A stretch of DNA of 64,000 bases, taken from assembly GCF_000497125.1 (NCBI RefSeq), contig NC_090598.1, positions 124,001-188,000 of the forward strand, in the 5' to 3' direction. Origin of the DNA: Spironucleus salmonicida (Eukaryota). The notes under the pieces were generated by a model. It was not told where the DNA came from, made no database searches, and saw nothing but the letters and a program-made list of their open reading frames with translations. Both the position numbers and the translations under genes were made by a program. Below, piece after piece: positions 3,984 to 51,380 of this stretch; positions within the stretch are counted from its first letter, which is position 1, and every line of letters starts with the position of its first letter.

Positions 3984-6506
3984 ATGTTAACAGAAGAAGA
4001 GTTAGACAAAGAGTTAACCACTAATATAGATTATTTATCATTCTCTATAACAACCATTAACGTTGAATCTAGACAGAGAGCTAATTAGTTTTTCAAAGAC
4101 GTACTTAGTTTGGTCTAAACTGATTTCCAACACGCCAAATTGTTTAAAAATTTGCAGAAAAGTTTACAGAAAACCGAAAAAATTACTCAAGCTTCATAAA
4201 TAAAAGATACTGCTGAAGAGAGTTCAAATTCTGATGTTTTTAGTAGTGATGATGATAATATAGATGAAGACGATGAATTTGCAGTTGAAGGTGTGCAACT
4301 GTAAAGCCAAACCATGTGTGTGTTGCAGTAACTCTAAAATTATTCTAGTAAGAGTAAATAGGCTGCTGGATAGGCTGAGTTATTGAAAAATTTGATTTAA
4401 TAAAAAAATGAACGTATTTAATAATTATAGATGGAGCTAGATTTATCATAGGCATAATATTCTTCGTTAGAAGCAGAAAAATTAGGATACATATTAGATA
4501 TGTCCATTCATGAAGACAAGGTATGTTAACTTTAGGTAAAGGTTTAAGAGTTGTAGGAAGAAATTAAAAACAAGAAATTAAAAATAGATTTATCTGTAAA
4601 TGCTTCTTCTTCGATACCGGGCGGTATGCCTCCTCCTCCACCTCCTGGCGGTATGCCTCCTCCTCCACCTCCTGGCGGTATGCCTCCTCCTCCACCTCCT
4701 GGCGGTATGCCTCCTCCTCCACCTCCTGGCGGTATGCCTCCTCCTCCACCTCCTGGCGGTATGCTTCCTCCTCCACCTCCTGGCGGTATGCCTCCTCCTC
4801 CACCTCCTGGCGGTATGCCTCCTCCTCCACCTCCTGGCGGTATGCCTCCTCCTCCACCTCCTGGCGGTATGCCTCCTCCTCCACCTCCTGGCGGTATGCC
4901 TCCTCCTCCACCTCCTGGCGGTATGCCTCCTCCTCCACCTCCTGGCGGTATGCTTCCTCCTCCACCTCCTGGCGGTATGCTTCCTCCTCCACCTCCTGGC
5001 GGTATGCTTCCTCCTCCACCTCCTGGCGGTATGCCTCCTCCTCCACCTCCTGGCGGTATGCTTCCTCCTCCACCTCCTGGCGGTATGCCTCCTCCTCCAC
5101 CTCCTGGCGGTATGCCTCCTCCTCCACCTCCTGGCGGTATGCTTCCTCCTCCACCTCCTGGCGGTATGCCTCCTCCTCCACCTCCTGGCGGTATGCCTCC
5201 TCCTCCACCTCCTGGCGGTATGCCTCCTCCTCCACCTCCTGGCGGTATGCTTCCTCCTCCACCTCCTGGCGGTATGCTTCCTCCTCCACCTCCTGGCGGT
5301 ATGCCTCCTCCTCCACCTCCTGGCGGTATGCCTCCGCCGCCAGGTACATTTTTAGGTGGTTAATAGGCTCCAAGTTAATAACAATAATATTAATAACCAC
5401 AGTAAGTTACTTTTAACTCTCCAATAATTAAACTTTAACTTAAATCATTTTTCTGGGATAAATTAAAGCCTATGGATATAAAACCAAATTCTATCTGGAA
5501 AGAACTTGGACTGAAGGATATAACTCTAGATGCATAATTAATTGATGAAGTATGTTAATATTTTGAAAATAAGTAACAATAAACTGTCCAACAAGTTGTG
5601 GCCTCACCGATAAAACCGAAGCTTATATCTATTCTTGACGATAAATTATCTAATAAAATAGAGATTATTCTTTAAAAGTTTAAATTAAATCCAAATTAGG
5701 TACGTGACTAAATTCTTACAATGTAAGTACCTTCAGACCAAGTTTCGCTCATTTTATCAACAATTCCAGCGCCAGAAGTTATAGAACAGGTATTAAATGC
5801 CCTAAATGACGAACCGGATCTAGATAAATATGCTATCGGCGAACGCTACATGGCAGTGTTAGGCGTGATCCCACGTTTACGGGCTAGAATGCTTAATTTA
5901 GAGCTCTCAATGGAGTTTGAAGTTGATCTTAATACCTCAATTCAAGCCTACCAGCGCTTAGTTAGCTTCTTCTAATTTTTCAAGAAAAACGCTTCTTTTA
6001 AGAACTACCTGTTAACGATGAGAACGCTTGGAAACCTCATCAACTACAGCAACGCCTCACGAGGAGGTGCTGCTGGTTTCAGAATCAAGTCTTTAGTGAA
6101 ATTCTACGAACTGAAAGGCCAAGACAAGACGCTGCTCCACTGGGTCAATAGCGTCCAGGAGCCAGAGTTTTACAAAGAGCTAAAAGAGCTCTGCAGTGCT
6201 ATCGCAAAGGACGATATTTCAGAGCTCAAAAAGGAATTCGAGAACATTTTGCGGAATTTCAACCAAATCTGCGAGAGCCAGGCGGTGATTCCAAGTCCTC
6301 TGCAGGGAGACCGCTATGCCGGATTCGCCGCCGCGTTCGACCGTAAGTATAGCTAGGTGGTGAGTGATGCGAAAACTGGCTGGGACTAGCTTGATTTGCT
6401 GATTCGGGAGGCACAGGCCGGCTTTTAGGATATTGGGAAGGTAGAGGATTTCTGCAAATCAATAATTTAGTTTGTGGATGTGATAGGGAAAACGGTCAAG
6501 AAGTGA
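3984..6506 (+). CDS. Formin (coiled coil + FH1 polyproline + FH2), ~840 aa
   Basis: ATG 3984 is in frame with the (MPPPPPPGG)n tract. FH2 signatures follow: LKSFFWDKLKP..IKPNSIW, ERYMAVLGVIPRLRARM, GNLINYSNASRGGAAGFRIKSLVKF, KTLLHWV. Ends AAG TGA. Confidence 0.92.
4618..5343 (+). repeat. 27-bp tandem repeat (26 full units plus a partial unit) encoding the formin FH1 domain
   Basis: Unit ATGC(C/T)TCCTCCTCCACCTCCTGGCGGT repeated directly with no spacers. Confidence 0.97.
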
Positions 6507-6521
6507 TAAAATGCGTTCGAC

Positions 6522-6743
6522 TCAGAGAATCAGTTTGTATATTCCAACTAGGAAACATGCCAACGAGATTACGTAGTGCAGCCTGATGCCAAGCACGGCC
6601 GCTTTGTAAAACGTTCCTCGGGCTCCAGTTTTTTCTTTCAGGATAAAGTTTTTAAGCTTTGGTATTCTGGCAACATATGATGCAGTGCAAATGAAGAGTA
6701 GGGCAAATATAATGAAGCCTTCAAACGTCCAAACCGTTACCAT
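6522..6743 (-). CDS. Protein kish (TMEM167 family)
   Basis: 73 aa with F.G....LLFICT..Y..IP...EKTG..G.FYKAA..G.RL...SLAC pattern typical of kish/TMEM167. Confidence 0.88.
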   Translation of the reverse strand: MVTVWTFEGFIIFALLFICTASYVARIPKLKNFILKEKTGARGTFYKAAVLGIRLHYVISLACFLVGIYKLIL

Positions 6744-6803
6744 TTTAAAAATAATATACTATATTATATATAATAAATATCATGAATAGTTTACTTCCGA
6801 TTA

Positions 6804-6980
6804 ATGTAAAACTAGCTTGAGTCCGTTTCTTATTTGTGTAATAATTGTGGGTATGAAGTTATCTTGAGGTTATCTAATTAAAATCATATTACCCCAGAAT
6901 AAGTTAAGTGCTAAATGTGTAAGAAAACAATTTTATTCAAGAAAAGAACAAATTGTACTGATATGATTGACTGCAGATGA
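6804..6980 (+). CDS. RPB12: RNA polymerase I/II/III shared subunit RPABC4 (Rpb12)-like zinc ribbon
   Basis: 58 aa under TAR=Gln: VSYLCNNCGYEV...VKCQMCKKTILFKKRT...DCR, with two CxxC motifs and the ILxKKRT signature. Confidence 0.85.
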
Positions 6981-14582: not shown

Positions 14583-14632
14583 TTTAATATTTATAAATAT
14601 ATATGTAATTTATATTAATATTACAAAATAAA

Positions 14633-15847
14633 ATGCCAGAGTATTAAACATTTTCTTGTCCGTTTTTCATTGTTGGTGATAGTAATACAGGTAAGCGTAC
14701 ATTTGCTAAATCTTTATCCCATAACTTTTAATTAAACGCATAGGATGATAGGTTTAATATTTAAGTGCGTTCAAAATTAATAATATCGCTTATTGAAGAT
14801 TTGCCTGAACAGCCTTTTGGATTGATTTTAGTTTATGATATAACTAATTAAATATCATTTGATTATATAAAAAATATTGTTACAAACCTTCCAACTTCTT
14901 AAATTATTATTCTTCTTGGCACACATCGTGATTTATAGGATCAACGATAAATAGAATATGAGGTAGCCTAAGATTTTAAAAAGTTGCATAATATGATTTG
15001 GTTTGAGTTTGCAGCAGATAGCTAAAAGTAAGCTGATATATTAACGAAGTAAATATTTATCAGATCAGTTTTTGCTATAAGAAATATTATTGAAACAGGA
15101 TGTATTATTCCAACATTAAAAGAAACAGAAAGTAACTAATATTTACAAGTATGCTAAATTAATGATTAATTTGTAAATGAAGATGAAATGATGAATCTTT
15201 CTGCAATTATTGATGAAGAATAATCTGGAGGTGTCAATATGCAGTCCCCAGATCTTCATGTTTTCTAAGAATCACTATCCCCTTAAACTTTAAGATAAAC
15301 ATACTAAGTAGAAGCTGACAAATTTTATATATCTTAAAAGAGCTAACAGAAAGTATTTAAAAAAATAGAAAAATTAGAACGGGAACCACCAATTTTATAA
15401 CTAGATTTAGAATTAAATGGTAATATATATAAATTAGAAGTTCGAAGGGATGATGTTGCATATGATTTGGCAAAATGTTTTGTAGAACGATATAGTCTTG
15501 ATCATTCTATGATAAAATAAATATCACTTTTAGTTTTAGATAGATTATCCTAATTTAGCTAGTAAGAGAGAGAAAGTTAGTTATAGCGGAAAAAACAGGT
15601 AATTGATAATTATCCATTTAACGAACCAAAATTTTTTCATAAGGAGGTTAGAAAAGTTTTATTTAAATTTGAACTTGAAGTGGCAGCAAAAAGCATTACT
15701 GTGGCATGGAGAGAAGGAGATGAATCACGACGTGTAGCAATGGGTTTGATAAAAACTTTAGGCTTAAAAGAAGAATTATATTATAATTTTATTATAGGTA
15801 AAATTAACGAAATCCTAAGTCTGTGGAAACTTAGCTAAGATGAGTGA
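14633..15847 (+). CDS. Divergent Rab-like GTPase domain with long C-terminal extension (~404 aa)
   Basis: IVGDSNTGKRT, LILVYDITNQISF, IILLGTHRDLQDQRQI, WFEFAA. The last codon and stop (GAG TGA) form the outer end of the inverted repeat. Confidence 0.75.
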
Positions 15848-15852
15848 GAACG

Positions 15853-16401
15853 TCAGATCACTACCACCCCCGCTGCGCGCAGCTCCCGGGCCACCTCCTC
15901 CGCGCTGTCCGGGAACACGCGGCCCGTGAGGCCAGTTAGCACGCGCACCTCGGTTGCGTACTTGAGCGCATCGAGGGCGGTGGCCTTGACGCAGAACTCG
16001 AGGGCGAGGCCCACCACGTCAATGCGGTGCACGTTGCGGCTCTGGACGAACCGCGCCAGCCCGTCCGACTAGAAGCCGGAGAAGGCCTCCACATCCTCGC
16101 GCTGGCCCTTGCTGAAGACGTGCTCGGGGACGGCAAGGCCCGGGGCGAAGGCGGCGCCATGGGTGCCCTGGACGCAGTGCGCGGGCCACTGGATGGACTC
16201 CGGCGTGGCGTCGATGCAGATCCCCGGCACGGCCTCGAAGGACTGGTGTGCTGGCGGGTGCCAGTCCCTGGTGGCGACGCAGTAGTCGTAGTCCGGCTGG
16301 GCGGCGTTGATCATGGCCACGAGCCGGGCGTCCTCGATGGTGGGCAGGGAGCCGCCTGGCAGGAAGTCGTTCTGCAGGTCCACGATGATGAGGCAGGTCA
16401 T
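15853..16401 (-). CDS. pncA: Nicotinamidase/pyrazinamidase (PncA family), copy 1, 182 aa
   Basis: LIIVDLQNDFLPGGSL, TRDWHP, WPAHCVQGTHGA, FSKG, and after an in-frame TAG(Gln) VVGLALEFCVKATALDA...LRAAGVVVI. Confidence 0.92.
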
Positions 16402-16438
16402 GTTCGTGGAGGGGTGATTTTACCAAATCCGCCCCAAA
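16402..16438. promoter_or_regulatory. 37-bp divergent intergenic region, putative bidirectional promoter (mirrored at 23530-23566)
   Basis: Lies between head-to-head ATGs. Keeps an AT-richer core (GATTTTACCAAATC) within GC-rich DNA, with a C-run upstream of each ATG. Confidence 0.55.
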
Positions 16439-16900
16439 ATGGCGAGCACGCCGGATGTCTCGCAGTTCGTGATCAACATCATCATCCTCATCATCTTCGT
16501 CGCACTGTTCCTGATCGCCACCATCTCCACGTTGTCCTCGCGGTACTACGTGCGCCGGATGGGCCGCAACCTGCTCACCCGCCCGCTGCCCTTCACGGCC
16601 CTGGAGAACGTCAAGTTCAAGTCCCACCGCGTGAAGGCCATCCGGGACGCCGTCGAGCGCATGGTCCCCGCCCTCCTGCGCCAAGACGACGTCGCGGTGG
16701 ACCCCGAGGCCAAGCGCCGCAACTACGCTGCCGCCGTGGCCACGATGGACCGGCTGTGGAACCCGGACGGGGCGTTCCAGGCTCGCAGCGAGCCGTACCG
16801 CGCGATGCTGGAGCGCGCGCAGTGGTCGGGGGAGGAGGTCAGCCGCGCGGACTTCGAGGCCTTCGTGGAGCTGGGCGGCAGGCTAGTGAGCAAGCAGTGA
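16439..16900 (+). CDS. Hypothetical protein with N-terminal transmembrane helix, copy 1
   Basis: 153 aa; FVINIIILIIFVALFLIATISTL; G/C-ending codons; ends CAG TGA (AGTGA). Confidence 0.8.
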   Translation: MASTPDVSQFVINIIILIIFVALFLIATISTLSSRYYVRRMGRNLLTRPLPFTALENVKFKSHRVKAIRDAVERMVPALLRQDDVAVDPEAKRRNYAAAVATMDRLWNPDGAFQARSEPYRAMLERAQWSGEEVSRADFEAFVELGGRLVSKQ

Positions 16901-16905
16901 TCACT
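16896..16905. terminator. Back-to-back stop/polyadenylation motifs AGTGA|TCACT (mirrored at 23063-23072)
   Basis: Two convergent genes both end in AGTGA with zero intergenic bases. Confidence 0.6.
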
Positions 16906-17089
16906 CGCGGTGCACCCCCGCGGCGTGCCTGCTCTTGGCGTGCACGGCGGCACAGCGCTCGGCCGGCGTCAGCGTGGTGCTCTGGCGGTGCCGGGACCGC
17001 GCCAGGCTCTGCTGCAGCAGGCGGATGCGGTAGTCGGCCCTCCGCAGCTGGGCCTGCAGCACGTCTCTCCGGGGCTCGGGTGCTGGCAT
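16901..17089 (-). CDS. Small basic hypothetical protein (62 aa), copy 1
   Basis: ATG-started MPAPEPRRDVLQAQLRRADYRIRLLQQSL...; ends GAG TGA abutting the neighbour's stop; exactly fills the gap between two genes. Confidence 0.5.
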   Translation of the reverse strand: MPAPEPRRDVLQAQLRRADYRIRLLQQSLARSRHRQSTTLTPAERCAAVHAKSRHAAGVHRE

Positions 17090-17117
17090 TCCGATCAAGT
17101 TTCCCGGGCTCCGGGCC

Positions 17118-17720
17118 TCACTCCCGCACCGCGCGGATCACCACCAGCGCCTCGCTCTGCAGGCGCTTCCGCAGCACCACCGCGGCCGTGAAGCCCCGGG
17201 TAGCGAGCACGGCCAGCAGCTGGTCCGGAGCGTTCGCCTCTATTGCCACCATATATACCGTGGCACCGGGACTGCACCTGGCTGGTAACTCTTGGAGGAA
17301 ACGGTCTATCACATCCCTGCCGTGCGCGCCACCACAGAGAGCCAGGTCCAGCAGATTGTCGCACTGTAGGTCCCCCGGCACGTAAGGCGGGTTGAACGCT
17401 ATTATATCGAATTTTCCATCAACATTTTAGAAAAGATCTGACTAAATAAACTCTCCTTATAAATTATTAACAATAAATGTATTTTGCGCATTCTACAAAG
17501 CTAATGGATTTATATCAGTACAGTAAGGAATAATTTGAAACTATTTAGCCATCTATATTGCAACACATCCATACCCGCATCCGATCTCAATACATCTTGT
17601 AGGTTGAATAGAAGGTGGAAAATTTAAAATAGAATCCATAAGTAAGAATGTATCTTCATCTGGTACATATACTTCATTATAATTTTAAATTTCAAACAGT
17701 GGCAAAGAAGCTTGTTTCAT
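17118..17720 (-). CDS. MTQ2: HemK2/Mtq2 (N6AMT1) eRF1 glutamine methyltransferase, 200 aa
   Basis: EVYVPDEDTFLLMD, SAM motif CIEIGCGYG, TDINPLA, FDIIAFNPPYVP, ALCGGAHGRDVIDRFL. Confidence 0.92.
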
Positions 17721-17877
17721 TGGAAACGGAATACTAATAATTTATTATTTCCTATAAAATAAATAGTGATTAGTATGGATTTTAACTGATAATATTATAT
17801 ACTTGTATACACCTATATGTAATTGCAAAAATATATTTTATTATATAATTTAACTAGAATTATACCACTTCAAAATC

Positions 17878-20800
17878 ATGTAAGAAATCTAACGTTTACA
17901 TGCTGGTGTTTCCACATATACAACATCATCAGTTGGACATTGGCGTAATTTTATCATGTATATGTCTAATTTTAATGTTGTTGTATTCTAGTTAGACCCT
18001 TTTAGACATTTTGCAACCGTTTAAGGACCTAATGATATTAACGATAACGAATCTTCAGGAATTATTGCATTAGCTATTAATAAATCTGGTTAATTAGCAA
18101 TGACATCAAGAAAAGGTATGTTGTAAATTTTTTAACTCCCTAATGTTGAAAGTCCCATTTATTGTTAATCTATTGATTATAAAAAAAGGAATGAAGATAT
18201 ATAAATAGCAGATAGAAGAACTACAAAAGTATTTTTTGAACTTCTTGAATTTCATCCGAATCTTTAAAATGTTGTCTGCGCATATGATGGTACAAATTAA
18301 GAATGTCTTTTTATTAATTTTGAATTAGATAAAGTGTACAAACTGAAGGTCCCTGAAAAAATTAATACAATTGGCATGTTTGGTTCATAATAATAAGGCT
18401 AAAATACTATGTTCTTAGGAACTGTATTAACTGGTAAAATGCTTTATTTTTCTTAATTATAAGAAAAACTATAAGAATTTTATGAAAAGAAATCAATAGC
18501 AAAGAAAATTAATTATTCTTCTCTAGAAGTAGATTAATAAAAGTATGAACTGTAATTGGAGAGAACAGTTGCTGAAGATACAATACCTATGACAGGCTTT
18601 GTTCATGCTAAAAATATTAATTATAGTACGGTGTTATCTTTATCTGAAGATACATAGGCATAAGGGGTAACGCATAATATAGTTTCTACTTGGTATTAAG
18701 GTTATATTCTTGTTCATGATATGCTTAATGTACTATAAGATAATAAAAAATAGTAAGAGGGTTGTAAATTAACAGGTTTCCGTTAGATTAAGCAAGCTAG
18801 ATGTTCAGCTTTTGTCGCCGATAACCCAGGATTATTAGTTGTAGGGTTGTCTTCTGGTTAGTTATAATTTGTTAATGTAACCTCTATATAAACACCTAAA
18901 AACTAGGAATATATAAATTATGGATCATTTTTTGGACATTCTGCAGATTTTATTAATGCATCATTATAAAATGCTATGAATACAGATTATTATCTCTCTT
19001 CATTCTCATCTGATGAAATTATAGCAGATGTAATTGTATCACGGGGCAACCCAATTATTTCTGTTAGATCTTTTGCATTTGAGGGAATATAAACTTAATA
19101 ACCAAAAGGTACTGTTCAATCACCACTATCAGTAACAGAATATTCATAAACTGAGTTTTCAAAGACAGGAATTAGTTCCAGAAAAATCATAGTTTATGGT
19201 ACTTGTGTCGACGGTTCATTTTTCATATATGATTATTCTTAGCAATAATTTATATACTAATCTTAGCCTAACCATTCAGAATCAATATTTTCTTTACAAG
19301 CACATCCAACATTTCCTAATTTATATGCATCTATTTCAGCAGATACCACTTGTAAAGTTTGGAAAGATACCAACTATGGTTTAATTGTTGATCAACAATT
19401 TGGCTCATAAGGAGCATCTAGATAATATTCATAAGAAAAAGCAGTATCTGGATCATTTGGAAACAAGTCTGGTGGGTCGCTAAACACTTACCATTTATTA
19501 GGTCCATTACTTTCAGGAGCTTGGGATCCAAGACCATAATCATGTTTCATGATGCTTTCATCATTTTCTGGAAATGTCCTTATAGCAGACATTTGGAGAG
19601 GCTCTATATTTGCACAGTATAAAAAACATAAAAGCAAGGTTTTAGATACTGCTTGGTCCTTAAATCCAAGATGTTTGGCTGCTACTGTTTCTGCCGATGG
19701 GACGGGTAGAATATATTGTTTTGATAGAAATATTGATGTAACAAAAAATTAAGATAAGTTCGATGTAAATATTAATTTTATGGAGTTTGTTACCTAAACT
19801 TTTTCTCTTAACGGAGTAGCTTTTTCTCCACACGATCCTTTAATTGCGGTAGCATGTGGAGATGGATATGTGAGAGTATATGATTTAAAACTATTTGAAT
19901 AGACAAATGATGAGATATTATAATATTTAGAAAAAGAAAAAATAGAGCATAATTTCATTTAGCCAATTTAAATAGGGAAGTTTAACGTGAGCGAAAAAGC
20001 CGTTCATAAGGTTACTTTCCATCCTGTGATGAAAAATGTATTAGGGGTAACTTGCGATGGCGGTGAGTGCAGAATCTACCGTTACGAGTGGGATGGAAAA
20101 ATGAATTTCAAAGTCTAAACTGCTGCTATTCTTATAGGTCATGAAAACAATGGTAGACCAATCGTTTTCCACCCAGAAATTCCTTATATCGTTCTTACTG
20201 GAAGCTGGGACGGCACTATTAGGGTGTGGAATTGGGTTAAGGTCAAGCAAGAATATATTCACCATCTTGGCGCGGACGTCTATGGAATAGCTATTTAGCC
20301 GTCAAGGCCTTTCGAGTTTTTGGTAGGTTCACGAGATTTGACCATTCGAAAATTCTACCTAAAAGATCTGGCTCAAAAGTTCACTTCTGAGTGCATTTAG
20401 CAGTGTATGCTAAACTCAGTTTTGACGTTTAAAAATGGAAATTCGTATGGCCAGATGACAAATTAGGATTTGAAGTCGCAATTTGACGCAAAAACGCTCT
20501 GTCCGCATACCTGCGATAGCATTATTAACGGATTTGCAGCGCTAATTAACAAACCTAGTTATAAATTGATGAAGGATTAGTTTGACGCGAATCCGAACTA
20601 CAAGTAGCTTTCTGGAGACCTCTCCAAGAACTTTCTGACAGACTTGAATTCTCGAGAAGATAGCTAAAAGCATAATATTTTGTACACTCTCTCGACCATT
20701 ATTTCGTTCTTTTACCCATCTGATTCTGGTGCTAAATAGTTGCTCAATTCGCTATCATTTTACGCAAAAGATGAATTTGACTTTTACGTTAAATCAGCAA

Positions 20801-22509
20801 TCGATGACGGAGACTGGGCTTATAGTGAATTTCAGGAAACAGATGGACTGGCCTTAACTGGTAGAGGTTTATAACATTTTGCAGAATGTTTAGGTAGGCA
20901 CTATATTGGGAATTTATTGAAGTCTAAATAAGATTTTTATAGCTTGCCAAAGGAGTTTTCCACATAAAAATTCGGGTTTTATAATTTCTAAAGAAAGTTA
21001 CCCAATATGAAATCAGATGCTTTTAGATATTAATTTATGAATGGTATTTCACTATTAATTGCAGCTGGAAATTTTTAGGCCGCTATTGAAGCTTTTAAGT
21101 ATGCTCGGTGTGATGACTTGGTTGCATATTATTCAATTTTTGACCCTTAATCTATAGATATTGCATATTCAGAAGTAGATAAAGAAAGTGTTGCTAATAG
21201 ACTTAATTTAGAGGGATCTATTTCGCCAGTTTATAAGCGACTTATCGAAACATAAATAATAGTGCAACATAGTAAAAATTCTGATCTTATTAAATAAATG
21301 TGTTGGATTCTTTGCTAGTAGAGTTAATTTTGTTTAGCAAAGCTGATAGCTCACCAAAACAAAGAAACTGATATTATTATTGAAGTATCTTGGGAAATTG
21401 CATATGATTTACTTAGATAAAAATAGCCTATACGAGCTGCATTGGAACTTTTAACAGTAAAATAATACGAGAATGCCACAAAATTGCTTGCAATATCTGG
21501 CGAGCCATTTTTAGCAGCTTAAATTGCCATGACAACTCCAGAAGAATCTAGCCCTCTGGGTTTATTTGGCATGGCTGAGATAGCGTACTATAACAATATC
21601 GAACCAGATATTTTATTGAAAATAGGACGTGGTAATAGTGTTTCTAGTTAACCTGTAGATACAATGTTTTTAGCAAAGTGGTTTACCTTTGATAAAGTAA
21701 TAAAATATTTTAATAATATGTGTAATTAACTTAATGTTTTTAAGTAAAATGCAACAGAAGTTTCGAATTTCAATGAATAACAAGCATTAGCTATTGTTAA
21801 TATTGGGTAATTTTTTGATTACATATTGAAAGAATAAACCCCAAAAACTTTATTATGGTAAATGAATTAAGTAGCAGGATCTTTAGGATAAAGATATAAC
21901 ACTGCTTGTTTAGGGTTGATGGATGTGGTTAATATGTATGTTGGTAATTTTATAAAAACAAAATCGTCTGTAAAAGCTATATAAATTTGTAATGGGATTG
22001 AAAATTATGCCTGCGAGTTATCTACCTTATATAATTTATTTAGACATAGAGCATTAGATTCAAAATCTACAGTGTGTAGAACTGGAGCTTGTTTATCAAT
22101 GTATGTTGGTGGAATTCATGCAGCTAACCTTAACTTTTTTAACACAGCCGCATTTATGCTTTCTTAAGCCGAAAAAATAGCTACTAAATGCCCTGAGCTA
22201 ATTACTCCTTACATAGATATTGAAGAAATTAAGCTAAGAAAGCTTTTATGTATTTATGCATACTAATAAGGTGATAATACTAAATCAAAAATCACTATTC
22301 TATCTAAATAGTATCCAAAATATGAAAGTGTAGATGTTGAGTAATGGATGCATACTATTATATAAATAGGTGAAAAATATGATAACCATCGAGATCGAGC
22401 TATATTTTTAGCTGTAGGACCTAGTACAATGCGCTGCTTGTTTACACCGTTTGACATTCGACTACAACCAGTTTTAAGTTTTTGTAACACTGGTCTTAAT
22501 AATGAGTGA
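17878..22509 (+). CDS. WDR17: WD repeat protein 17-like (~1543 aa)
   Basis: Many WD repeats. IGHENNGRPIVFHPEIPYIVLTGSWDGTIRVW...GADVYGIAIQPSRPFEFLVGSRDLTIR matches my recollection of WDR17. Ends GAG TGA. Confidence 0.8.
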
Positions 22510-22565
22510 TATTTATATAGTTCTATATTCTAGTTATTTACAATTTAGATTGTGAACTCTACACA

Positions 22566-22850
22566 ATAGCGTTCAACCCGCCTTACGTGCCGGGGGACCC
22601 ACAGTGCGACAATCTGCTGGACCTGGCTCTCTGTGGTGGCGCGCACGGCAGGGATGTGATAGACCGTTTCCTCCAAGAGTTACCAGCCAGGTGCAGTCCC
22701 GGTGCCACGGTATATATGGTGGCAATAGAGGCGAACGCTCCGGACCAGCTGCTGGCCGTGCTCGCTACCCGGGGCTTCACGGCCGCGGTGGTGCTGCGGA
22801 AGCGCCTGCAGAGCGAGGCGCTGGTGGTGATCCGCGCGGTGCGGGAGTGA
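22566..22850 (+). pseudogene. 5'-truncated duplicate of the Mtq2 C-terminal half
   Basis: Begins at IAFNPPY. No in-frame ATG between the upstream in-frame TGA (22503) and the fragment. Lacks the SAM-binding motif. Confidence 0.85.
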
Positions 22851-22878
22851 GGCCCGGAGCCCGGGAAACTTGATCGGA

Positions 22879-23067
22879 ATGCCAGCACCCGAGCCCCGGA
22901 GAGACGTGCTGCAGGCCCAGCTGCGGAGGGCCGACTACCGCATCCGCCTGCTGCAGCAGAGCCTGGCGCGGTCCCGGCACCGCCAGAGCACCACGCTGAC
23001 GCCGGCCGAGCGCTGTGCCGCCGTGCACGCCAAGAGCAGGCACGCCGCGGGGGTGCACCGCGAGTGA
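22879..23067 (+). CDS. Small basic hypothetical protein (62 aa), copy 2
   Basis: Identical mirror of 16901-17089. Confidence 0.5.
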   Translation: MPAPEPRRDVLQAQLRRADYRIRLLQQSLARSRHRQSTTLTPAERCAAVHAKSRHAAGVHRE

Positions 23068-23529
23068 TCACTGCTTGCTCACTAGCCTGCCGCCCAGCTC
23101 CACGAAGGCCTCGAAGTCCGCGCGGCTGACCTCCTCCCCCGACCACTGCGCGCGCTCCAGCATCGCGCGGTACGGCTCGCTGCGAGCCTGGAACGCCCCG
23201 TCCGGGTTCCACAGCCGGTCCATCGTGGCCACGGCGGCAGCGTAGTTGCGGCGCTTGGCCTCGGGGTCCACCGCGACGTCGTCTTGGCGCAGGAGGGCGG
23301 GGACCATGCGCTCGACGGCGTCCCGGATGGCCTTCACGCGGTGGGACTTGAACTTGACGTTCTCCAGGGCCGTGAAGGGCAGCGGGCGGGTGAGCAGGTT
23401 GCGGCCCATCCGGCGCACGTAGTACCGCGAGGACAACGTGGAGATGGTGGCGATCAGGAACAGTGCGACGAAGATGATGAGGATGATGATGTTGATCACG
23501 AACTGCGAGACATCCGGCGTGCTCGCCAT
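23068..23529 (-). CDS. Hypothetical protein with N-terminal transmembrane helix, copy 2
   Basis: Identical mirror of 16439-16900. Confidence 0.8.
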   Translation of the reverse strand: MASTPDVSQFVINIIILIIFVALFLIATISTLSSRYYVRRMGRNLLTRPLPFTALENVKFKSHRVKAIRDAVERMVPALLRQDDVAVDPEAKRRNYAAAVATMDRLWNPDGAFQARSEPYRAMLERAQWSGEEVSRADFEAFVELGGRLVSKQ

Positions 23530-23566
23530 TTTGGGGCGGATTTGGTAAAATCACCCCTCCACGAAC

Positions 23567-24115
23567 ATGACCTGCCTCATCATCGTGGACCTGCAGAACG
23601 ACTTCCTGCCAGGCGGCTCCCTGCCCACCATCGAGGACGCCCGGCTCGTGGCCATGATCAACGCCGCCCAGCCGGACTACGACTACTGCGTCGCCACCAG
23701 GGACTGGCACCCGCCAGCACACCAGTCCTTCGAGGCCGTGCCGGGGATCTGCATCGACGCCACGCCGGAGTCCATCCAGTGGCCCGCGCACTGCGTCCAG
23801 GGCACCCATGGCGCCGCCTTCGCCCCGGGCCTTGCCGTCCCCGAGCACGTCTTCAGCAAGGGCCAGCGCGAGGATGTGGAGGCCTTCTCCGGCTTCTAGT
23901 CGGACGGGCTGGCGCGGTTCGTCCAGAGCCGCAACGTGCACCGCATTGACGTGGTGGGCCTCGCCCTCGAGTTCTGCGTCAAGGCCACCGCCCTCGATGC
24001 GCTCAAGTACGCAACCGAGGTGCGCGTGCTAACTGGCCTCACGGGCCGCGTGTTCCCGGACAGCGCGGAGGAGGTGGCCCGGGAGCTGCGCGCAGCGGGG
24101 GTGGTAGTGATCTGA
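23567..24115 (+). CDS. pncA: Nicotinamidase/pyrazinamidase (PncA family), copy 2
   Basis: Identical mirror of 15853-16401; in-frame TAG at 23897 read as Gln; TGA at 24113. Confidence 0.92.
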
Positions 24116-24224
24116 CGTTCTCACTCTCTCTAAATTTTCTCGTAATAAAATATTACGCTAATCTTTATTAAGTAAACTTTATCATATATAAATTTATTTT
24201 TTAAACTACTTAGTATAAGAGTTT

Positions 24225-25301
24225 TCAGAAAAGGTCGTTTATATCATGTACAATTTATTCCACATGGCTTCCATCTTTCACTTTATTTCTTATCTATTCA
24301 TAATAAAATTATATTTGTCCCACATCTTCTAGCATTTCGAACAGTTATGCAAAAGCTGAATCTGAATAAATATCCTTGCGCTTACTTAATGTGCAAAGAA
24401 TGTCTAAAAAATCTTCTGCGAATCGACCGAATTCGGAAGGCAAATTCTAGACATAAAGGACAAATCCAAGACCAAGAAAATGTTTCGAAATATCATTTTT
24501 AAGAATTATTAAGAACTAAAGCTCATAAATATGATAATAATTGAAAATAGTGCATATTTCATCAATCTAATTTGAATATACAGTGGACTCAATAATTTAG
24601 TTTAAGAAAGTAAAAAATGCTGGTGGTGGTAACTTAATGTTAAAGTCTAATAATTAAATTCGCTATAGAAACTAGCCAAGACCGCTGATGATCCTGTTAA
24701 TTGTATATGTGCTGTAATCAAATTATAGGACTTAAATAAAAAAATCATAAAATTATGGCATTTAAATCATAATAGAATCTTCTGAAATTAAATTTAGCTA
24801 ACAATTTTTTAAAATTTATGTTATTAGAAATGTAGCTGGTCGATGAAGGGTAAAAAATTAACTAAAATTAATTTCCATAAATAATTTAGCAGCATACTAA
24901 CTATCATCAATAGCAAAATTACCCAATATTTTTATACATCTTTCTCTTATCTCAGGAATTTTTGTTAACTAAAGAGTTTACATGATAATATCATCAATTC
25001 CTTATGCAAATGATTATTACTAAAATGTAGTAAATGTTCTAAATGATTCGTGAAGACATCGAAATATTTGTATTTAAGGCTACATTAAAATCTGGGACAG
25101 TATTTTTTAAGAATTGAAACTTAAGAATAAATCTACATATGCAGAGAACTCTTAATCATATGTATTACAAATTTATATGAATATGTCAACATTGAAATTA
25201 AATATAAGTTCGTTTATTTTGTGGATACTCTCTTATGTGACCATAATGTTATTACATGATGGGTAAGAATGATTAATTGATAATTTTCTGAATGTTAACA
25301 T
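24225..25301 (-). CDS. Hypothetical ARM/HEAT-like helical protein (358 aa)
   Basis: Frame walked codon by codon and open throughout. IPEIRERCIKILGNFAIDDS resembles an importin-alpha-type ARM repeat. Confidence 0.6.
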
Positions 25302-26416: not shown

Positions 26417-29400
26417 TCATTAGATATTTGCAATTACAGCAACTCCTTTCAAAATCCAACTATTAGCCTTTACGGAACTTTTTAGCTTTATAGTGAATAT
26501 ATAATTTAGTCCAGTCCTGCTTGGATTTTTATAAACTGGGCATTCATATAAAATGATACCTTTTTCTCCAGGTATATCACCGTCGCTAGCATCTATTCGT
26601 AACAGAGGAAGTGAACTAAATAATTAATTTATAGGCTGATCTATCAATTATTCTTTTTTGCTATCCCACGCCGCACCCTGCAGGCTCAGCCCTTCGATGA
26701 AATAACCAGTCTTCTGATCGCTTTTAGGCTTTTAAATTTGGGTCTACAACACGACCCTATCTAAAGGCCATTGATTCCTTCTTGCTAACTCTTATTTTAT
26801 TGCAGTTAAAAAACCAGTTGGGTTGAAGAAACCAGAAATCTGGAATATTTTTGGTGTAACCTTTTACCATAATTTGTATTACAAATGCCTAGAAGACAGA
26901 TCACTTATCCAGAAAGTGAATGATTTTGATGGGAATGAAATGTTGACAAATGATTACGGAACTGATCCATCTGATATATGTGTTAAAACTGATTCCAATT
27001 GCTCAGACATTATTGCAGTCCCATCAATTGCTTTTTAAAGATCAGTAAGTGTATATTTGGTGAACTATAATACCTAGTTAATCCTCTGTATTTCTTAGTG
27101 CAAAAATACATCCAGGGGTGAAATCGACGCTGGTGCATTTGAAACTAATAATTCCGGTAATTTATCTATTATATTTTATATGTTGATATTAGTATTAAGT
27201 TTCTTGCCATCAAGCAAATTGTGTAAAATTTCGTTTGCCTAAACTTCACGGAAAGCCAAATCAGCATTTGCAGACATTTAGAAAACATTTGGTGTATCAA
27301 TAGAAGGTAGTAGTTGTATATAGTCAAGAATTTGTTATAAATTATTTGTTCTTGGTATCGTATGACGAGGCGCAAACTTAAATTCCTAGTCACTTATGCG
27401 GTTATTAAGGAATTCTTACGTATAGGCCATCATCAGACGCCTATCATAATCATCAGTAATTCTACCGCCGTAATGAACTTCGGCTATCATATACCATACC
27501 GTTTTCCACGAAATTGCGACGTTCTTTCTTGAATCAATAGAATAAAGATATTGTTAGATAAACCCTGCTGAGGCATTAAAGTCGTGAAGACCAAATTCAT
27601 ATTTACAACACCATCCAAGGGTTCCAAATTTCTTACGCTCAATTATTGCTGCATGAATGAACGTTGTAGCATATAGCATTGGAAGCCATTGAGGTTTATC
27701 ACCTGAGTCTAAGAAATCTTATGTTAATTATTAATAAACACGCATCATATTAGCACGTAGACCAGTTGGTGGCTCGTTAGTTAATTTGATTGATTTTTAT
27801 AGAAGTGTAATAGGGAATTTCTTGTGGTGTTCAGTTGTAAGAATCAGTCTGAATTCTGAATTAACTTACTAGCTATTATTTAGTAACTAAAAATACCCTG
27901 TTGATTAAACTTATTTTAACAAAGAAGATTTATCTTTGTCTTATGATGCTTTTATCTTTTTAAATATAGAGTCTCTAATCTATATATCAAGTAAAAGCTA
28001 GTCAATTTCTTACATGAAATTAATGGCTAAATGTGAGTTATTAATCATAATCCAATTACCATTTAGTATACACTCAGTGATTAATCTACGTGCGTTTGCC
28101 TCTTATCCTTAGCCCATTGAAATTTATTTTAATTCTAACTTTTTATTCTTAGCTAAAACTTCTAATTATTATGTAGGATCTGACCCCAAGGAAAGTAAAA
28201 ATGTAACCACTTAACCTGGTGAAGTCTCTGTATTGAAAATTTATTCATAATTTGCATTCGCTGGGTTAGTATACTGAGGACCCATCTATCTATCTATATA
28301 ATGTTACGCAGCAAGAATAGTTCGATCATCTCTAAAACATCTTATTAAAAGAAGTCTTTAGAATTATGAGACCCTATCCTAATAATCTGATGGGAGATCA
28401 ACCTATTCTACATCCGACATAAACCACTATTTCCATTCTTCATCATTATCCTAGCAAACATTACAGACAGAATGAAATACAGGTATTTATTATAAAGCAG
28501 TTACATTTCTCCAAGCTTTATCATTACACCATACAGGAAAACTACGTGTTTATTCTATTGACGACCCACCTTTTACAAAAATATTGAACTCCTATGGTGT
28601 TATACTTTCTTTTTATAGCTCTATTTATAATGTTAATTTTAATGTTAATAATTATTTGTCCTTTTCATATAAGCCTCTTAAAATATATGTAAACGCTTTC
28701 TCAGTTAAATACTCTAAAACAAAGTTTATACGTTTATTTGGTACTTGGTGTTGTGGTGAATCTTATATTGATAAATCAAATATGTTTGTAAACTAGTTTA
28801 GTGAAGTTTGATACATATGATTTTAGCTAGTTAAATCACAAATAACAAAATATAATAACGCTCCTCTAGTTGCAATAGGTAAATAGTCTTATCTAGCCTC
28901 TTCTATTTTTCGTTCAGTGTCTACCGCTACAACCAATTTAATTTTCACTTCTTCCGCAGTCTTTTTAGTATTATTTAAGACATCAATAAGCTCTACATCA
29001 TCTAACAAATTTCCAGTTGAGTTAGAAAGCTTATACAATAAATCCTCCTCTAATTTTTAAGCCATTTTTTTATTCTGATTAACTTCTTCTAATAACTAAA
29101 TTCTTTAAAGTTCAAGATCATATTTTTCTAAATTAACAGTTCTAGATAATAGTTATGCTTCTAGCCCTGCAAAGGAGACTGCAAAATCAATAATTGCAGT
29201 TTTAGCATACATTTCAGGTGTATATACTGGAGATGGTAGACGTGTAGTCATAAACATCCTAAAATTCTCATCAACAGTTTTCATTTGATCCCCAACTCGA
29301 ACTTCTTTTCTCAACCCAGAAATTTAATACTACTTTTCTAATATTGGATCCAATATTGGATCAAAGTCTTATTCGACATCTTCTATTAAAAGAATCTATC

Positions 29401-32400
29401 CGTTTTCAACTGCATTTTCTAGTATCATTTTAAATTTACTAGAAGATTACGTGGTAACCACTAATTTTTCTCCATACATATTTTTTATCCATGAGTTTCC
29501 TTGATTTTGAGGATCAATAATTAAAGGATAATTTGGCGAATTTAGGGTAATTATACCGTTTTAAGTTGATATTAGATCGTTCGGTAAGCCTAATAATCTC
29601 CATTCTCCAACTTATGCCTCAGATACTAATTTTTTAACAACATAATTTTCAATTCCTAAAGTATATTAAATTCGATTCTCTTATATAAATTTAACCCATT
29701 TTTCTAATAAAATTTATCGATATTTTTAATTATATGGACCACAATAATTCATAAAACCAGCTATAACAATTGAATTGCCAATTGTTTTTGATATTATTTC
29801 ATCTAATTCTTTAATTTATTGTCCCCATCTATTTCTCTCACCAGATAATCCTTATATTAGAGAAGATGCAGTATGTAGACGCTTCTAAGTTAATTATGCC
29901 TCTCGTTATAGTGTCATTTTCTAGCCATTAACTTCATCAAATTATGCTTATAAATTATCTAATATTAACTATCTATCAGCTAACTCTTATTATGCTTTAC
30001 CTAATTTTTACATTGCTAATCTATAAACATGTTCCATATCTCTAACTTTTTATCTTTTTGGTTCTACCTCTTATGCAATAAAATGATATGCTTTCATAGA
30101 AACTACCCAATTATAAAGACCACACACATCTTTAGATGCTTTTTATGAATATTCAAATGTAAAGTCTAATTATGATAAGTAGCAATCAAGTAATTCGCAT
30201 TGTTCATCAGTAATTGCATCTTTATTATAAATCTACAATTATTGTAAAAATGGACCTGACATAAGTGTATAAGATTATTGCCATGACGGTATATTTGCCT
30301 TTATATTTGCTCTTTATTGATCCATCTGTATTTTATCTAATTTTACATTAAGTAAAATTAAAACTGAATCTAAAATTCTTTAAATTAAATTAGGTGGATT
30401 CAATAGCTTTCTTAAAGTTTAAATCTTGCTCGGCTCAATTGATTTTAATGCATTTTCAGCTTGAATTAAAAGTGGCATAGCTTTTTCTAAACCCGCTTCA
30501 GCAATACCTTTTTATTCTTTAATTTCTTCAGCCTATTTAGTACACTCATCTGCTACTAATTATACCTCAGCTTTAATACCAGCTGCTTCTTTTGTTTAGA
30601 CAGAAATATCTTGCATCATTTCTTCTGTTTTCTTAGATGCAATAGCTAGTTCTTTCTCCTTAGTTTCTAAATGTACTCTCATAGCAGCAATATCATCTGC
30701 AGCATCAAATAAAATTTATAAACCTTTTTTAAGTTTGTTCTATTAATTCTCAAGTTAACTAACTTCTTTTTAATAAATATCTTTATAAATTGTCAAAAAG
30801 GATAAAAATGATTTCGGTGTAATGTTGGTCTTTCTTGACGTTTCTTCACTATATTTTTAGATAATCTCATATACAAAACTATGTACTTATGATAAACATA
30901 TATTTAGATTATCCCCTTAATTAATCATATGACCAGCTACCTATTATAAAGCATCTAAACTCCACTCTCTATAATAATCTATAATACAACCACTAATAAT
31001 TCCTGGATATTTATTACATCTTTCTCTAAATAATAGACCTGGAGAAAATGATAACACTAAATGTAGCTATTATTTCATTTTATTTAAGAAGAATCTCCAT
31101 AAGCTATCATTTGTGTCACTCTATCGAGGGCATTCTTTTTTAAATATAGACCTTGCATCTGAAATTATTTCTTCCCTCTCATCTTTAGCATATAAACCAG
31201 GTACCTCACCAACAGTCAATAGGTTATTAATACGTTCTAAAAACATTTCATTTTTGATATCATTATCTGTAAATCTAAAAATAATATCTTCAAAAAATGC
31301 TTCACGGCCTATTTTTCTCAAATCATCATCAAAATTTTATAAATTATAATTTTTGGTAGCCTAAATTTAAATAAGTTTAAAACCTGTAATATGTGATGCA
31401 ATTTTTACAACACTTTACTTTCCTGAACCACCAACCCCAATTAATAATGCATGTGAGTTTTGTGAAAATAAAATTCTAGTTAATCTTGTTATATGTTACA
31501 TACACGAGTCAAATAATACTAGATCAATTTAACTTTTCCTGTATTTTTCATTATAATCGTTTTAATATTAGCTTAACCGTTAAATTAGTTAGTCTTCGTT
31601 AGCAGCCTCATAAATATGAGGGACCTTAATATCTTAGTCTTCTTCTACAGTGTCAGGCGCATCTCTCATAAAATGTGAAAAATATACATTATTCGCAAAC
31701 TGTGAATATACATTTGCCCCAAATTCTCCTATATCTTAATACAATATTGTTGATAACGTTTATTTAAACCAATTAATATCTTTTTCTTTATTACACCTAT
31801 CAGAAAATACACGGAAGCTTTCATTAATCCATAGTGTTAATAAAGCATGGGGTGTATTAATCACATCTTTATCTGCCTTAATTAACGATTAAGTTATTCT
31901 ACTTAAATCTCTAAGGTTGAATTAATAGTGGAATTATTCCGGTGTTGGTAGTAATTTATCTTTAACCTTATAAAGCAAAGTACGCATTAATTTTGGCAAT
32001 TTTTCAGAAAGACTAGTTACATCTTCTGAAAATAGATCTTTTACAAAATAGTTCTCTAAAAATGATCCAAATATAAAATCTAATTACGAACTATTTGGCA
32101 TATTTAAAAATAAGCAGAAGAATTAACTCTTTAATCTGTTTGGTATATCATTTCTCCCCCCACCTGGTATTGGCATCGCTGCTAAATATTGGAGATCTTC
32201 AATTACTATCATATCTCCTGGCTTAGATAATGAATAATAAAGATACTGTTCAATAATTTATCTTGTTAGCTCATTTGTCGTTTAATCTCCCCACTCATTC
32301 ACTTATGGTGAACTTAAATCATCTAAAAATAGTAACCCTTACTTGTTCAACGGAGGACCATAAGAATTTCCCAATCGTTTTTCTAAAAATGTTTCAAAAT

Positions 32401-49542: not shown

Positions 49543-49631
49543 AAATTCTATACATATTTCTAATATATAATAATCTATAACGTTGAATAAATATATACGA
49601 ATTAGATATAATTATATTGTATTTGTAATTA

Positions 49632-51327: not shown

Positions 51328-51380
51328 CAATTGGAGTGGAATTATATAAAGGAAATGAAATATTTTTTATACTATATTAT

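Follow-up and report, generated by a model that had tools for sequence, protein, structure and literature searches.

A GC-rich, near-identical inverted repeat in Spironucleus salmonicida whose borders coincide with steps in base composition, and its possible upkeep by GC-biased gene conversion

The stretch of the Spironucleus salmonicida genome analysed here (64,000 nt of contig NC_090598.1, hereafter the window) is gene-dense and intron-poor, and its genes use the host code in which TAA and TAG specify glutamine. The repeat search of the 64-kb window found a single pair of inverted repeats of at least 60 nt, at 15842-17434 and 22534-24126. Base-by-base comparison delimited within this pair a near-perfect core, in which 1561 of 1562 positions are identical as reverse complements and the sole mismatch is an A at 17368 opposite position 22600 (Table 1). 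The preliminary description of this DNA had given the same two arms with one mismatch found by eye, and the exact alignment that it proposed has now confirmed both. Inward of the core, the next 31 nt on each side are identical at 19 of 31 positions (P=2.7e-4 by composition), an extension which is short and was detected by an extension algorithm; beyond it nothing further aligns in the flanks. The first six nucleotides of the left arm are the last codon and the stop of the Ras-like gene with its AGTGA signal, and the truncated Mtq2 copy of the right arm abuts the stop of the WD40 gene in the spacer. When TAA and TAG are translated as glutamine, the arms carry the genes that had been listed for them, namely a nicotinamidase, an apparently membrane-spanning protein, a 62-aa ORF and the 3' half of Mtq2. 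The 5' half of Mtq2 does lie in the spacer as described, but it joins the left arm only, and the copy in the right arm is truncated. The spacer gene had been named WDR17; the gene is present and has WD40 repeats, but its identity as WDR17 was not confirmed beyond these. The 5' half of Mtq2 and the WD40 gene fill the spacer and leave no room for a transposase, and no target-site duplication or flanking direct repeat was seen on reading the right-arm junctions, in agreement with the earlier account. A DNA transposon with long terminal inverted repeats was rejected on these two grounds.

Table 1. Features of the inverted repeat and its surroundings (positions in the 64-kb window)
Feature	Position	Strand	Remarks
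Ras-family GTPase-like gene, left flank	14603..15847	+	last codon, stop and AGTGA at 15842-15847
Left arm	15842..17403	.	1562 nt, 67.9% GC; original gene context
Nicotinamidase/PncA-like, left copy	15853..16401	-	182 aa; in-frame TAG at codon 111; GC3 0.93; stop TGA
Divergent promoter region, nicotinamidase / 153-aa gene	16402..16438	.	37 nt, GC 0.51; mirror copy 23530-23566
153-aa protein, left copy	16439..16900	+	N-terminal hydrophobic stretch, apparently membrane-spanning; GC3 0.96; ends AGTGA; orphan
62-aa ORF, left copy	16901..17089	-	GC1/2/3 0.76/0.56/0.94; ends AGTGA
Mtq2/HemK2-type glutamine methyltransferase, intact	17118..17720	-	200 aa; crosses left arm border
Decayed left-arm extension	17404..17434	.	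AT-rich; codes for Mtq2 residues just before NPPY motif
Unique spacer	17435..22533	.	5099 nt, 31% GC; 5' half of Mtq2 and WD40-repeat gene
WD40-repeat protein	17878..22509	+	1543 aa; in spacer
Decayed right-arm extension	22534..22564	.	AT-rich, non-coding; 24 nt after WD40 gene stop
Right arm	22565..24126	.	reverse complement of left arm, 1 mismatch; derived, inserted copy
Mtq2 3' part, truncated copy	22565..22850	+	right arm; without 5' half; Pro for Leu at mismatch
62-aa ORF, right copy	22879-23067	+	mirror of left copy
153-aa protein, right copy	23068..23529	-	same protein as left copy
Nicotinamidase, right copy	23567..24115	+	protein identical to left copy
Right-flank gene	24225..25301	-	no Pfam match; end 98 nt outside right arm

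The nicotinamidase matched PF00857 with 61.8 bits against a curated cut-off of 27. Its alignment with PncA of Pyrococcus horikoshii (1ILW, E=3.6e-34) keeps the motifs VDxQxDF, TRDWHP, HCVQ, SK and E(F/Y)CV, which we take to hold the catalytic Asp-Lys-Cys and the metal-binding Asp/His, and the in-frame TAG aligns without a gap to a Glu of the P. horikoshii protein. No relative exceeds about 47-48% identity among the best 120 of 7514 matches. The 153-aa protein matched only itself among 1.84 billion representatives, and these two results together argue against a recent donor. Assignment of the 153-aa protein to NICE-3/C1orf43/Dlt1 (PF07406) was rejected, as Pfam gave no match to this family with E-values as high as 10 allowed; its sole support, a feature score of 0.92 in the Atlas, serves as a lead only. 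All four arm ORFs stop at TGA, and three of the four end in AGTGA, which is a stop/poly(A) motif in S. salmonicida (excerpt of PMC3916229), as compared to 10 of the 29 other ORFs of the window. Both strands of the divergent promoter region contain C-rich runs, and the ATG of the 153-aa gene is preceded by AAA; a C-rich/AAA start motif is described for S. salmonicida in the same source (PMC3916229). The 62-aa ORF is probably a real gene, given its codon-position GC and its AGTGA end. Judged from such sequence signals, the arm DNA is native and not foreign.

The composition of the arms differs sharply from that of their surroundings and from the roughly 28% GC of the genome. The GC content is 0.679 for the whole arm, 0.269 and 0.281 for the left and right flanks and 0.312 for the spacer. 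In 400-nt windows it ranges from 0.63 to 0.73 within the arms and from 0.21 to 0.30 in the flanks, which agrees well with the previous estimate of about 60-75% against about 25%. In 20-nt windows, GC rises from 0.45 to 0.75 at the outer border (15840-15860) and falls from 0.75 through 0.40 to 0.20 at the inner border (17370-17410), and at either border the shifts in GC and in identity coincide to about 10-20 nt. Non-coding and third positions of the arms reach a GC of 0.74-0.96. GC3 is 0.93-1.00 deep in the arm and 0.73, 0.73, 0.53 and 0.60 over the last ~180 nt before the inner edge, and the single mismatch falls in this marginal zone of low GC3. Of the glutamine codons, TAR accounts for 1 of 22 inside the arms and for 828 of 1024 beyond them; with the host code, GC pressure is expected to cause just such a synonymous change from T to C. 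The 27-nt FH1 tandem array of a formin gene in the same window has units that are 98-99% identical and a GC3 of only 0.22, so homogenisation by itself is not enough to raise GC here. Genes that are unrepeated within the window also show moderate GC3 bumps (0.5-0.73), and these indicate that some GC heterogeneity arises without a local repeat.

The Mtq2 gene crosses the inner border of the left arm, at FDII|AFNPPY. Its identity is supported by the PF05175 domain (56 bits, cut-off 23), by the NPPY motif and by relatives named HemK2, MTQ2 or N6AMT1. The 5' 105 codons (17404-17720) are AT-rich and contain seven TAA/TAG codons, whereas the 95 codons at the 3' end, inside the arm, are GC-rich; GC1/2/3 changes from 0.39/0.29/0.19 before the border to 0.73/0.45/0.78 after it. 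The share of Gly, Ala, Arg and Pro (GARP) in the protein increases from 0.17 to 0.36, a rise of about 0.18, and the same change in 52 homologues has a mean of +0.02 (SD 0.04, maximum 0.10). The two halves are equally far from their homologues, with best identities of 42% and 46%, which argues against a donor for the GC-rich half. This bears on the idea that the arms are a GC-rich fragment of bacterial or eukaryotic origin that entered twice, or entered once and was duplicated afterwards. Lateral gene transfers are many in diplomonads (excerpt of PMC1805757), and the named best nicotinamidase matches, in the best 120 listed, are all bacterial (Verrucomicrobiota, Planctomycetota and Myxococcota, 40-48%). 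But the GC-rich tract starts in frame inside a native Mtq2 of eukaryote/archaeal type, the nicotinamidase has its in-frame TAG, and the arm genes carry AGTGA stops and C-rich/AAA start contexts of the host. The orphan status of the 153-aa protein and the distance of all the listed nicotinamidase matches also speak against a foreign source, as does a GC3 that follows a gradient and not a uniform foreign composition. The foreign origin is already close to refuted.

A different order of events would be that a sharp-bordered GC island, produced by regional mutational or recombination bias, existed before and was recently copied in inverted orientation, the arms being alike because they are young. 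One difference in 1562 nt is just what a young duplication gives, and the GC3 bumps in unrepeated genes would suit it. Shifts from 30 to 70% G+C over several kb have been reported in S. salmonicida contigs as well, and repeats are unmentioned in the excerpt of that source (PMC1805757). However, both breakpoints of the duplication would then have to match the borders of the island to 10-30 nt, a homologous yet diverged extension of 31 nt is not expected of a young copy, and the GC3 gradient and the sole mismatch both lie at the inner edge. We regard this order as unlikely.

Our preferred reading, to which we give a probability of about 0.6, is an old inverted duplication held identical by arm-to-arm gene conversion with a strong GC bias. 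The contrast between 1 difference in 1562 nt of the arms and 19/31 identity in the adjoining DNA agrees with an old duplication whose core has been homogenised. The joint start and stop of GC and identity would follow if GC enrichment set in after the duplication and only within the tract that converts, and the step-like jump at the arm borders, also inside Mtq2, would follow because conversion tracts cannot enter unique DNA. The preliminary description had likewise preferred a long-lived palindrome maintained by arm-to-arm recombination over a recent duplication, and the decayed 31 nt, the coincident borders and the fall of GC3 together with the mismatch at the inner edge all support this.

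We observed the repeat itself, its step in composition, arm genes that are native to the host and a decayed edge, and from these we infer a sequence of events in which conversion would be GC-biased and still ongoing. A 1.6-kb piece of this compact diplomonad chromosome, beginning at the stop codon of the Ras-like gene, ending midway in Mtq2 and including the nicotinamidase, the 153-aa gene and the 62-aa ORF, may have been copied long ago, in inverted orientation, into an intergenic gap 5.1 kb away. The arms would since have repaired each other repeatedly by intrachromosomal gene conversion, which would account for their near-identity, and homologous chromosome copies of the polyploid, binucleate cell probably take part. 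If mismatch correction in heteroduplexes favours G/C, or if repair is GC-biased in another way, AT-to-GC changes would come to occupy both arms at a much higher rate than GC-to-AT changes. At third positions GC would have climbed from about 0.2 to 0.93-0.96, with a later rise at first and second positions and in non-coding DNA, and the arm-encoded proteins would have turned rich in Gly, Ala, Arg and Pro. This is a very large effect: by a two-copy calculation, G/C would have to win at about 98% of mismatches for GC3 to rise from 0.21 to 0.94. The GC repair bias reported for yeast and mammals is roughly 50-70%. A GC conversion bias of about 70% is given in the excerpt of PMC8981503. In our multi-copy calculation a bias of about 0.80 suffices with 4 copies and about 0.64 with 8, so a moderate repair bias would be enough only if fixation passes through several copies.

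The need for a 98% bias, which comes from our own calculation, would also be eased if breaks and repair synthesis made GC-biased errors and conversion merely copied them to the other arm. Such recombination-associated mutagenesis predicts the same spatial pattern as biased conversion. But a GC of 0.74-0.96 at non-coding and third positions would require a very skewed mutation spectrum, and we know of no GC-biased repair polymerase signature in diplomonads; we consider this mechanism improbable. It is very improbable that assembly or polishing falsely produced the palindrome itself or the perfect match of its arms. Multi-mapping short-read polishing can erase differences between arms, but the four flanks are distinct and unique, all junctions lie in or beside continuous neighbouring ORFs, and two copies are therefore needed. 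Nor are the arms fully alike, given the mismatched base and the diverged 31-nt extensions, and besides the possible source sample one other study (4 runs) contains 77-87% of the sampled words of 15001-25000, the word positions not being localised. If multi-mapping short reads were used to polish the assembly, the arms may look slightly more alike than they are.

GC-biased gene conversion has mostly been inferred from weak statistical trends, while here a step of about 40 points is seen at a single locus which has internal controls, namely a gene with two contrasting halves and a repeat edge, rich in AT, that has decayed. The locus suggests a cause for the unexplained G+C shifts of S. salmonicida. 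It is a tentative extension, which we think somewhat more likely to fail than to hold, that the islands of 30-to-70% G+C reported in 2007 are in general footprints of repeat-to-repeat conversion, in which GC bias nearly fixes synonymous sites and rewrites proteins. This would involve either a two-copy bias of about 98% or a moderate bias compounded over the arms and over the chromosome copies of a polyploid cell with two nuclei, in an organism not known to have a sexual cycle, and it predicts that GC islands coincide with repeats genome-wide. If the extension holds, no natural calibration of the process would be cleaner than this palindrome, in which the gene straddling the border supplies its own control. 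Should conversion be confirmed, the compositional puzzle of 2007 in these parasites would be explained, and non-meiotic or intrachromosomal conversion would prove able to remodel proteins (GARP from 0.17 to 0.36 within one protein). Caution would also be needed before GC-rich, bacterial-looking diplomonad genes are called recent lateral transfers.

Several known systems resemble this locus. Plastid inverted repeats are homogenised by recombination, are often GC-richer and show flip-flop inversion of the spacer. They too consist of two inverted copies around single-copy DNA, but the locus described here is nuclear and far smaller, has no rRNA genes that explain its GC, and inversion of its spacer is only predicted. 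Raised GC3 accompanies ectopic conversion of duplicates, such as mammalian histones and Hsp70 and duplicates of yeast and Arabidopsis. The effect in such duplicates is modest and gene-wide, whereas the tract here follows the repeat and ignores gene boundaries. In S. salmonicida itself, the sharp shifts from 30 to 70% G+C were reported in 2007 as a 'peculiar phenomenon', with no mechanism in the excerpt of PMC1805757. The GC-rich blocks of that report (~70% G+C) share with this locus sharp borders and gene-dense DNA on both sides, and in its high-GC3 gene subsets, as here, high GC3 accompanies high non-coding GC (PMC1805757). In the chromosome-scale assembly of S. salmonicida, mean GC is 44.7% in duplicated regions and 30.7% elsewhere (excerpt of PMC9509377); the repeat described here is shorter than the 2-kb threshold for duplications in that study. 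The tie between island borders and repeat borders found here does not appear in the excerpts of PMC1805757 and PMC9509377. In Giardia, the median GC is 0.541 for genes that take part in conversion events, compared with 0.488 (excerpt of PMC12669663). Primate X and Y palindromes, like this locus, have arms more than 99.9% identical, a unique spacer, genes in the arms and a GC above that of the flanks, and they are homogenised by intrachromosomal conversion, as we propose here (excerpts of PMC8981503 and PMC3723533). Primate X palindrome arms have 46.3% GC against 41.2% in the flanks, which was ascribed to GC-biased conversion (PMC8981503). Unlike primates, the host here is a binucleate protist without a described sexual cycle. 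The arms are 1.56 kb here and tens to hundreds of kb in primate palindromes, whereas the GC excess is about 40 points here (68% against 27-28%) and about 5 there, and only here is the step base-sharp, located inside a gene and accompanied by a remodelled protein composition.

Only one long inverted repeat was found in the 64-kb repeat search of the window, and base-by-base comparison confirmed that one arm is the reverse complement of the other but for one mismatch, as the preliminary description had read by eye. The described GC contrast was also borne out, with an overall GC of 0.679 in the arm versus 0.269 and 0.281 in the flanks; the spacer has 0.312. In 400-nt windows the values were 0.63-0.73 in the arms and 0.21-0.30 outside them, and in 20-nt windows the change was completed within about 20 nt at all four borders. 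The lowest GC of the arm (0.51) belongs to a 37-nt divergent promoter region. Structured RNA was ruled out as the source of the high GC, as the whole window gave no Rfam match at gathering scores and no tRNA. The feature is real, and a single-copy assembly artefact is unlikely because the repeat has four different unique flanks, all of which pass without a break into neighbouring ORFs. Polishing could have removed a few differences between the arms. Sampled words of positions 15001-25000 were present at 77-99% in eight sequencing runs from two studies, a proportion that does not localise the parts present; four of these runs are possibly from the source sample, and the four of the other study contained 77-87% of the words. 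No RNA run was among the sequencing runs listed with these words.

Each arm carries the genes that had been ascribed to it, namely a nicotinamidase, an apparently membrane-spanning 153-aa protein, a 62-aa ORF and the 3' part of the methyltransferase gene Mtq2. The closest solved structure to the nicotinamidase is P. horikoshii PncA (E=3.6e-34), and the active-site motifs align. Profile searches assigned no Pfam family to the 153-aa protein or to the 62-aa ORF, and the sole match of the former among 1.84 billion cluster representatives was itself. A language-model feature (Atlas) for the NICE-3/C1orf43/Dlt1 signal-anchor family scored 0.92 on the 153-aa protein; this is no more than a lead, as the family profile in Pfam did not match and the protein has no sequence relatives. 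Only in the left arm does the Mtq2 part run on in frame to a 5' half, which lies in the spacer as previously stated; the intact protein has 200 aa, and the arm border falls between FDII and AFNPPY. The Mtq2 part of the right arm is a stump, 55 nt past the stop of the WD40-repeat gene of the spacer, which the preliminary description had labelled WDR17. An isomer with the spacer inverted is predicted to be viable, as the right arm would then complete Mtq2. A Ras-like gene of the left flank ends within the left arm: its final codon, its stop and its poly(A) motif make up the six bases with which the arm begins, GAGTGA. The terminator of this gene would therefore belong to the converting tract; the mirror of GAGTGA at the end of the right arm is used by no gene. 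Because the intact Mtq2 and the end of the Ras-like gene both rely on the left arm, it is the left copy that has kept its original context, the right arm being an inverted copy placed where the ends of two genes converge. Host genes take up the whole spacer, and, in agreement with the preliminary description, neither a transposase among them nor a target-site duplication at the arm junctions was found.

Features of the inverted repeat and of other genes in the window (window positions)
Feature	Position (strand)	Details
Left arm	15842-17403	mismatch at 17368
Right arm	22565-24126	mismatch at 22600
Longer span of the repeat	to 17434 / 22534	31 extra AT-rich positions, 19 matching
Ras-like gene	14603-15847	end inside left arm, 15842-15847
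Nicotinamidase	in each arm	182 aa; PF00857, 61.8 bits
153-aa protein	16439-16900 (+); 23068-23529 (-)	N-terminal hydrophobic stretch, apparently membrane-spanning
Mtq2/HemK2 methyltransferase, 3' part	in each arm	last 95 codons; PF05175; matches named HemK2/MTQ2/N6AMT1
Mtq2, 5' half	17404-17720 (-)	in spacer
WD40-repeat gene	spacer	1543 aa
GC3 rise in spacer WD40 gene	19950-20700	0.40-0.57 vs 0.07-0.30 in remainder of gene
Formin gene	3984-6506 (+)	FH1 array 4482-5483
Formin 3' end and start of ORF 6511-6867	5934-6600	GC3 bump, peak 0.66
WD40 gene	43598-44704 (-)	GC3 bump 43700-44300, peak 0.67
ORF	47917-49656 (-)	GC3 bump 48300-49100, peak 0.73
Dynein heavy chain	26417-40156 (-)	4579 codons
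Ribosomal protein S11/uS17	50869-51438 (-)	GC3 0.48

Under the standard code the flanks are without long ORFs. With TAA and TAG read as Gln, the window is a dense row of intron-free genes lying tens of bases apart, and TGA is the sole stop codon. The clearest evidence of Gln reassignment and intron poverty is the dynein heavy chain, one unbroken ORF with 314 in-frame TAA/TAG codons. In 12 genes outside the arms, 828 of 1024 Gln codons are TAA or TAG. Of the 29 ORFs that were called mechanically beyond the arms, 10 terminate in AGTGA, a motif known from Spironucleus salmonicida in which the stop overlaps the poly(A) signal (PMC3916229). The closest named relative of the ribosomal protein S11/uS17 is that of Hexamita inflata (67% identity), and its matches also include the other fornicates Aduncisulcus and Kipferlia. 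The Hexamita match and the AGTGA ends point to a hexamitine diplomonad as host, probably a Spironucleus; a ciliate, at first suggested by the genetic code (code 6), was rejected on these two grounds and on the close packing of the intronless genes. As is usual for highly expressed genes in this genome, the GC3 of the S11/uS17 gene is moderate; its called ORF probably opens with an ATG upstream of the true start, because the source's own protein has 152 aa.

The arms are native, not foreign. The GC-rich tract starts inside a native gene, Mtq2. On the spacer side of the border its GC1/2/3 are 0.39/0.29/0.19 and it has seven TAA/TAG codons; on the arm side the values are 0.73/0.45/0.78 and there is no such codon. 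The best homologues of the two halves have 42% and 46% identity; the halves are thus about equally distant from homologues, and there is therefore no donor for the GC-rich half. The Gly/Ala/Arg/Pro fraction shifts by +0.18 between the halves, about 4 SD above the 52 aligned Mtq2 homologues (mean +0.02, SD 0.04, maximum 0.10). In a gap-free stretch of the alignment with the Pyrococcus enzyme, an in-frame TAG of the nicotinamidase falls opposite a Glu, and all four arm ORFs stop at TGA, three of them with the AGTGA end. The 37-nt promoter region that separates the nicotinamidase from the 153-aa gene has kept C-rich runs, and AAA precedes the ATG of the 153-aa gene; such start contexts resemble those described for S. 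salmonicida (PMC3916229). Inside the arms 1 of 22 Gln codons is TAA/TAG, and this low share is predicted by GC pressure on native genes, since in this code a TAR codon still encodes Gln after a T-to-C change at its first position. As to a foreign origin, the closest matches of the nicotinamidase are bacterial, with 40-48% identity (best 120 of 7514), and those named among the matches listed belong to Verrucomicrobiota, Planctomycetota and Myxococcota, which are mostly GC-rich phyla. These matches may be partly due to compositional attraction, and a foreign origin of the arms was rejected on the start of the GC tract within Mtq2, the in-frame TAG, the host AGTGA stops and the lack of a close donor among the matches listed.

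High GC and identity have common borders at both ends. The main rival reading, that the GC island is older and was recently copied in inverted orientation, seems improbable to us, for both breakpoints would need to land within 10-30 nt of the edges of the island; under the opposite order, with GC enrichment a by-product of arm-to-arm repair after the copying, the coincidence of borders is automatic. Beyond the inner border the match of the 31-nt extension has P=2.7e-4 by composition, and alignment of the arm surroundings detected no homology past it or between the outer flanks. An old duplication whose core is still being homogenised would be expected to look like this. In the 180 nt at the inner edge, arm GC3 is 0.73, 0.73, 0.53 and 0.60, with 0.93-1.00 deeper in the arm, and the single mismatch, Leu in the intact Mtq2 and Pro in the stump, falls within this low-GC3 edge zone. 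Imported DNA, if uniform in composition, would hardly show such an edge effect. The shared borders, the diverged extension, and the GC3 gradient with the mismatch at the edge support the earlier proposal of an old palindrome homogenised from arm to arm.

The likeliest mechanism, to which we give a probability of about 60%, is gene conversion between the arms of an old inverted duplication, with a strong bias towards GC. The inverted copy would have been made first; the arms would then have repaired each other and stayed near-identical, with the GC enrichment limited to the repeat. In our own back-of-envelope model (baseline GC3 0.21, arm GC3 0.94), about 98% of mismatches must resolve towards G/C with two copies, and a bias of about 0.80 is enough with four interacting copies or 0.64 with eight, the odds compounding as (f/(1-f))^(N-1). 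Fixation through several interacting copies in a polyploid is conceivable, and the related diplomonad Giardia is described as a binucleate tetraploid (PMC12669663). Two observations in the window call for caution. The FH1 array of the formin gene is homogenised, yet its GC3 is only 0.22; its tandem units of 27 nt, at least 27 in number and 98-99% identical, encode GGMPPPPPP with GC1 and GC2 of 0.76-0.90 and GC3 of 0.20-0.24. Homogenisation by slippage or unequal exchange thus leaves GC unraised here. Several genes that are not repeated in the window also have bell-shaped bumps of GC3 (0.5-0.73), which may mark hot spots of recombination or sequences with copies in other parts of the genome. 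One of these bumps, the GC3 rise in the spacer WD40 gene, sits near the geometric centre of the palindrome (~19984).

In S. salmonicida, a survey published in 2007 reported that G+C changes abruptly inside finished contigs, from about 30% to almost 70%, with high GC3 together with high non-coding GC, and called this a 'peculiar phenomenon' not easily explained by mutational or selective scenarios (PMC1805757). In the 2022 chromosome-scale assembly, duplicated regions (2 kb or longer, with 95% identity or more) have a mean GC of 44.7% versus 30.7% elsewhere, and the available excerpts of that paper raise gene conversion only for cysteine-rich surface-protein genes (PMC9509377). For Giardia genes assigned to inferred conversion events, the median GC is 0.541 versus 0.488 (PMC12669663). 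The term 'biased gene conversion' is absent from the excerpts of PMC9509377 and PMC12669663, and our literature search found nothing joining it with Spironucleus; in running text, neither this locus nor a repeat border coinciding with a GC border was found described. With this locus, the compositional puzzle published for the group gains a concrete explanation that is open to test. The proposed mechanism is that of primate sex-chromosome palindromes, in which frequent arm-to-arm gene conversion holds identity above 99% and its GC bias of about 70% lifts the GC of the arms to 46.3% against 41.2% in the flanks (PMC8981503). The excess here is about 40 points, and the palindrome of S. salmonicida would be an unusually extreme case of the known palindromes with converting arms.
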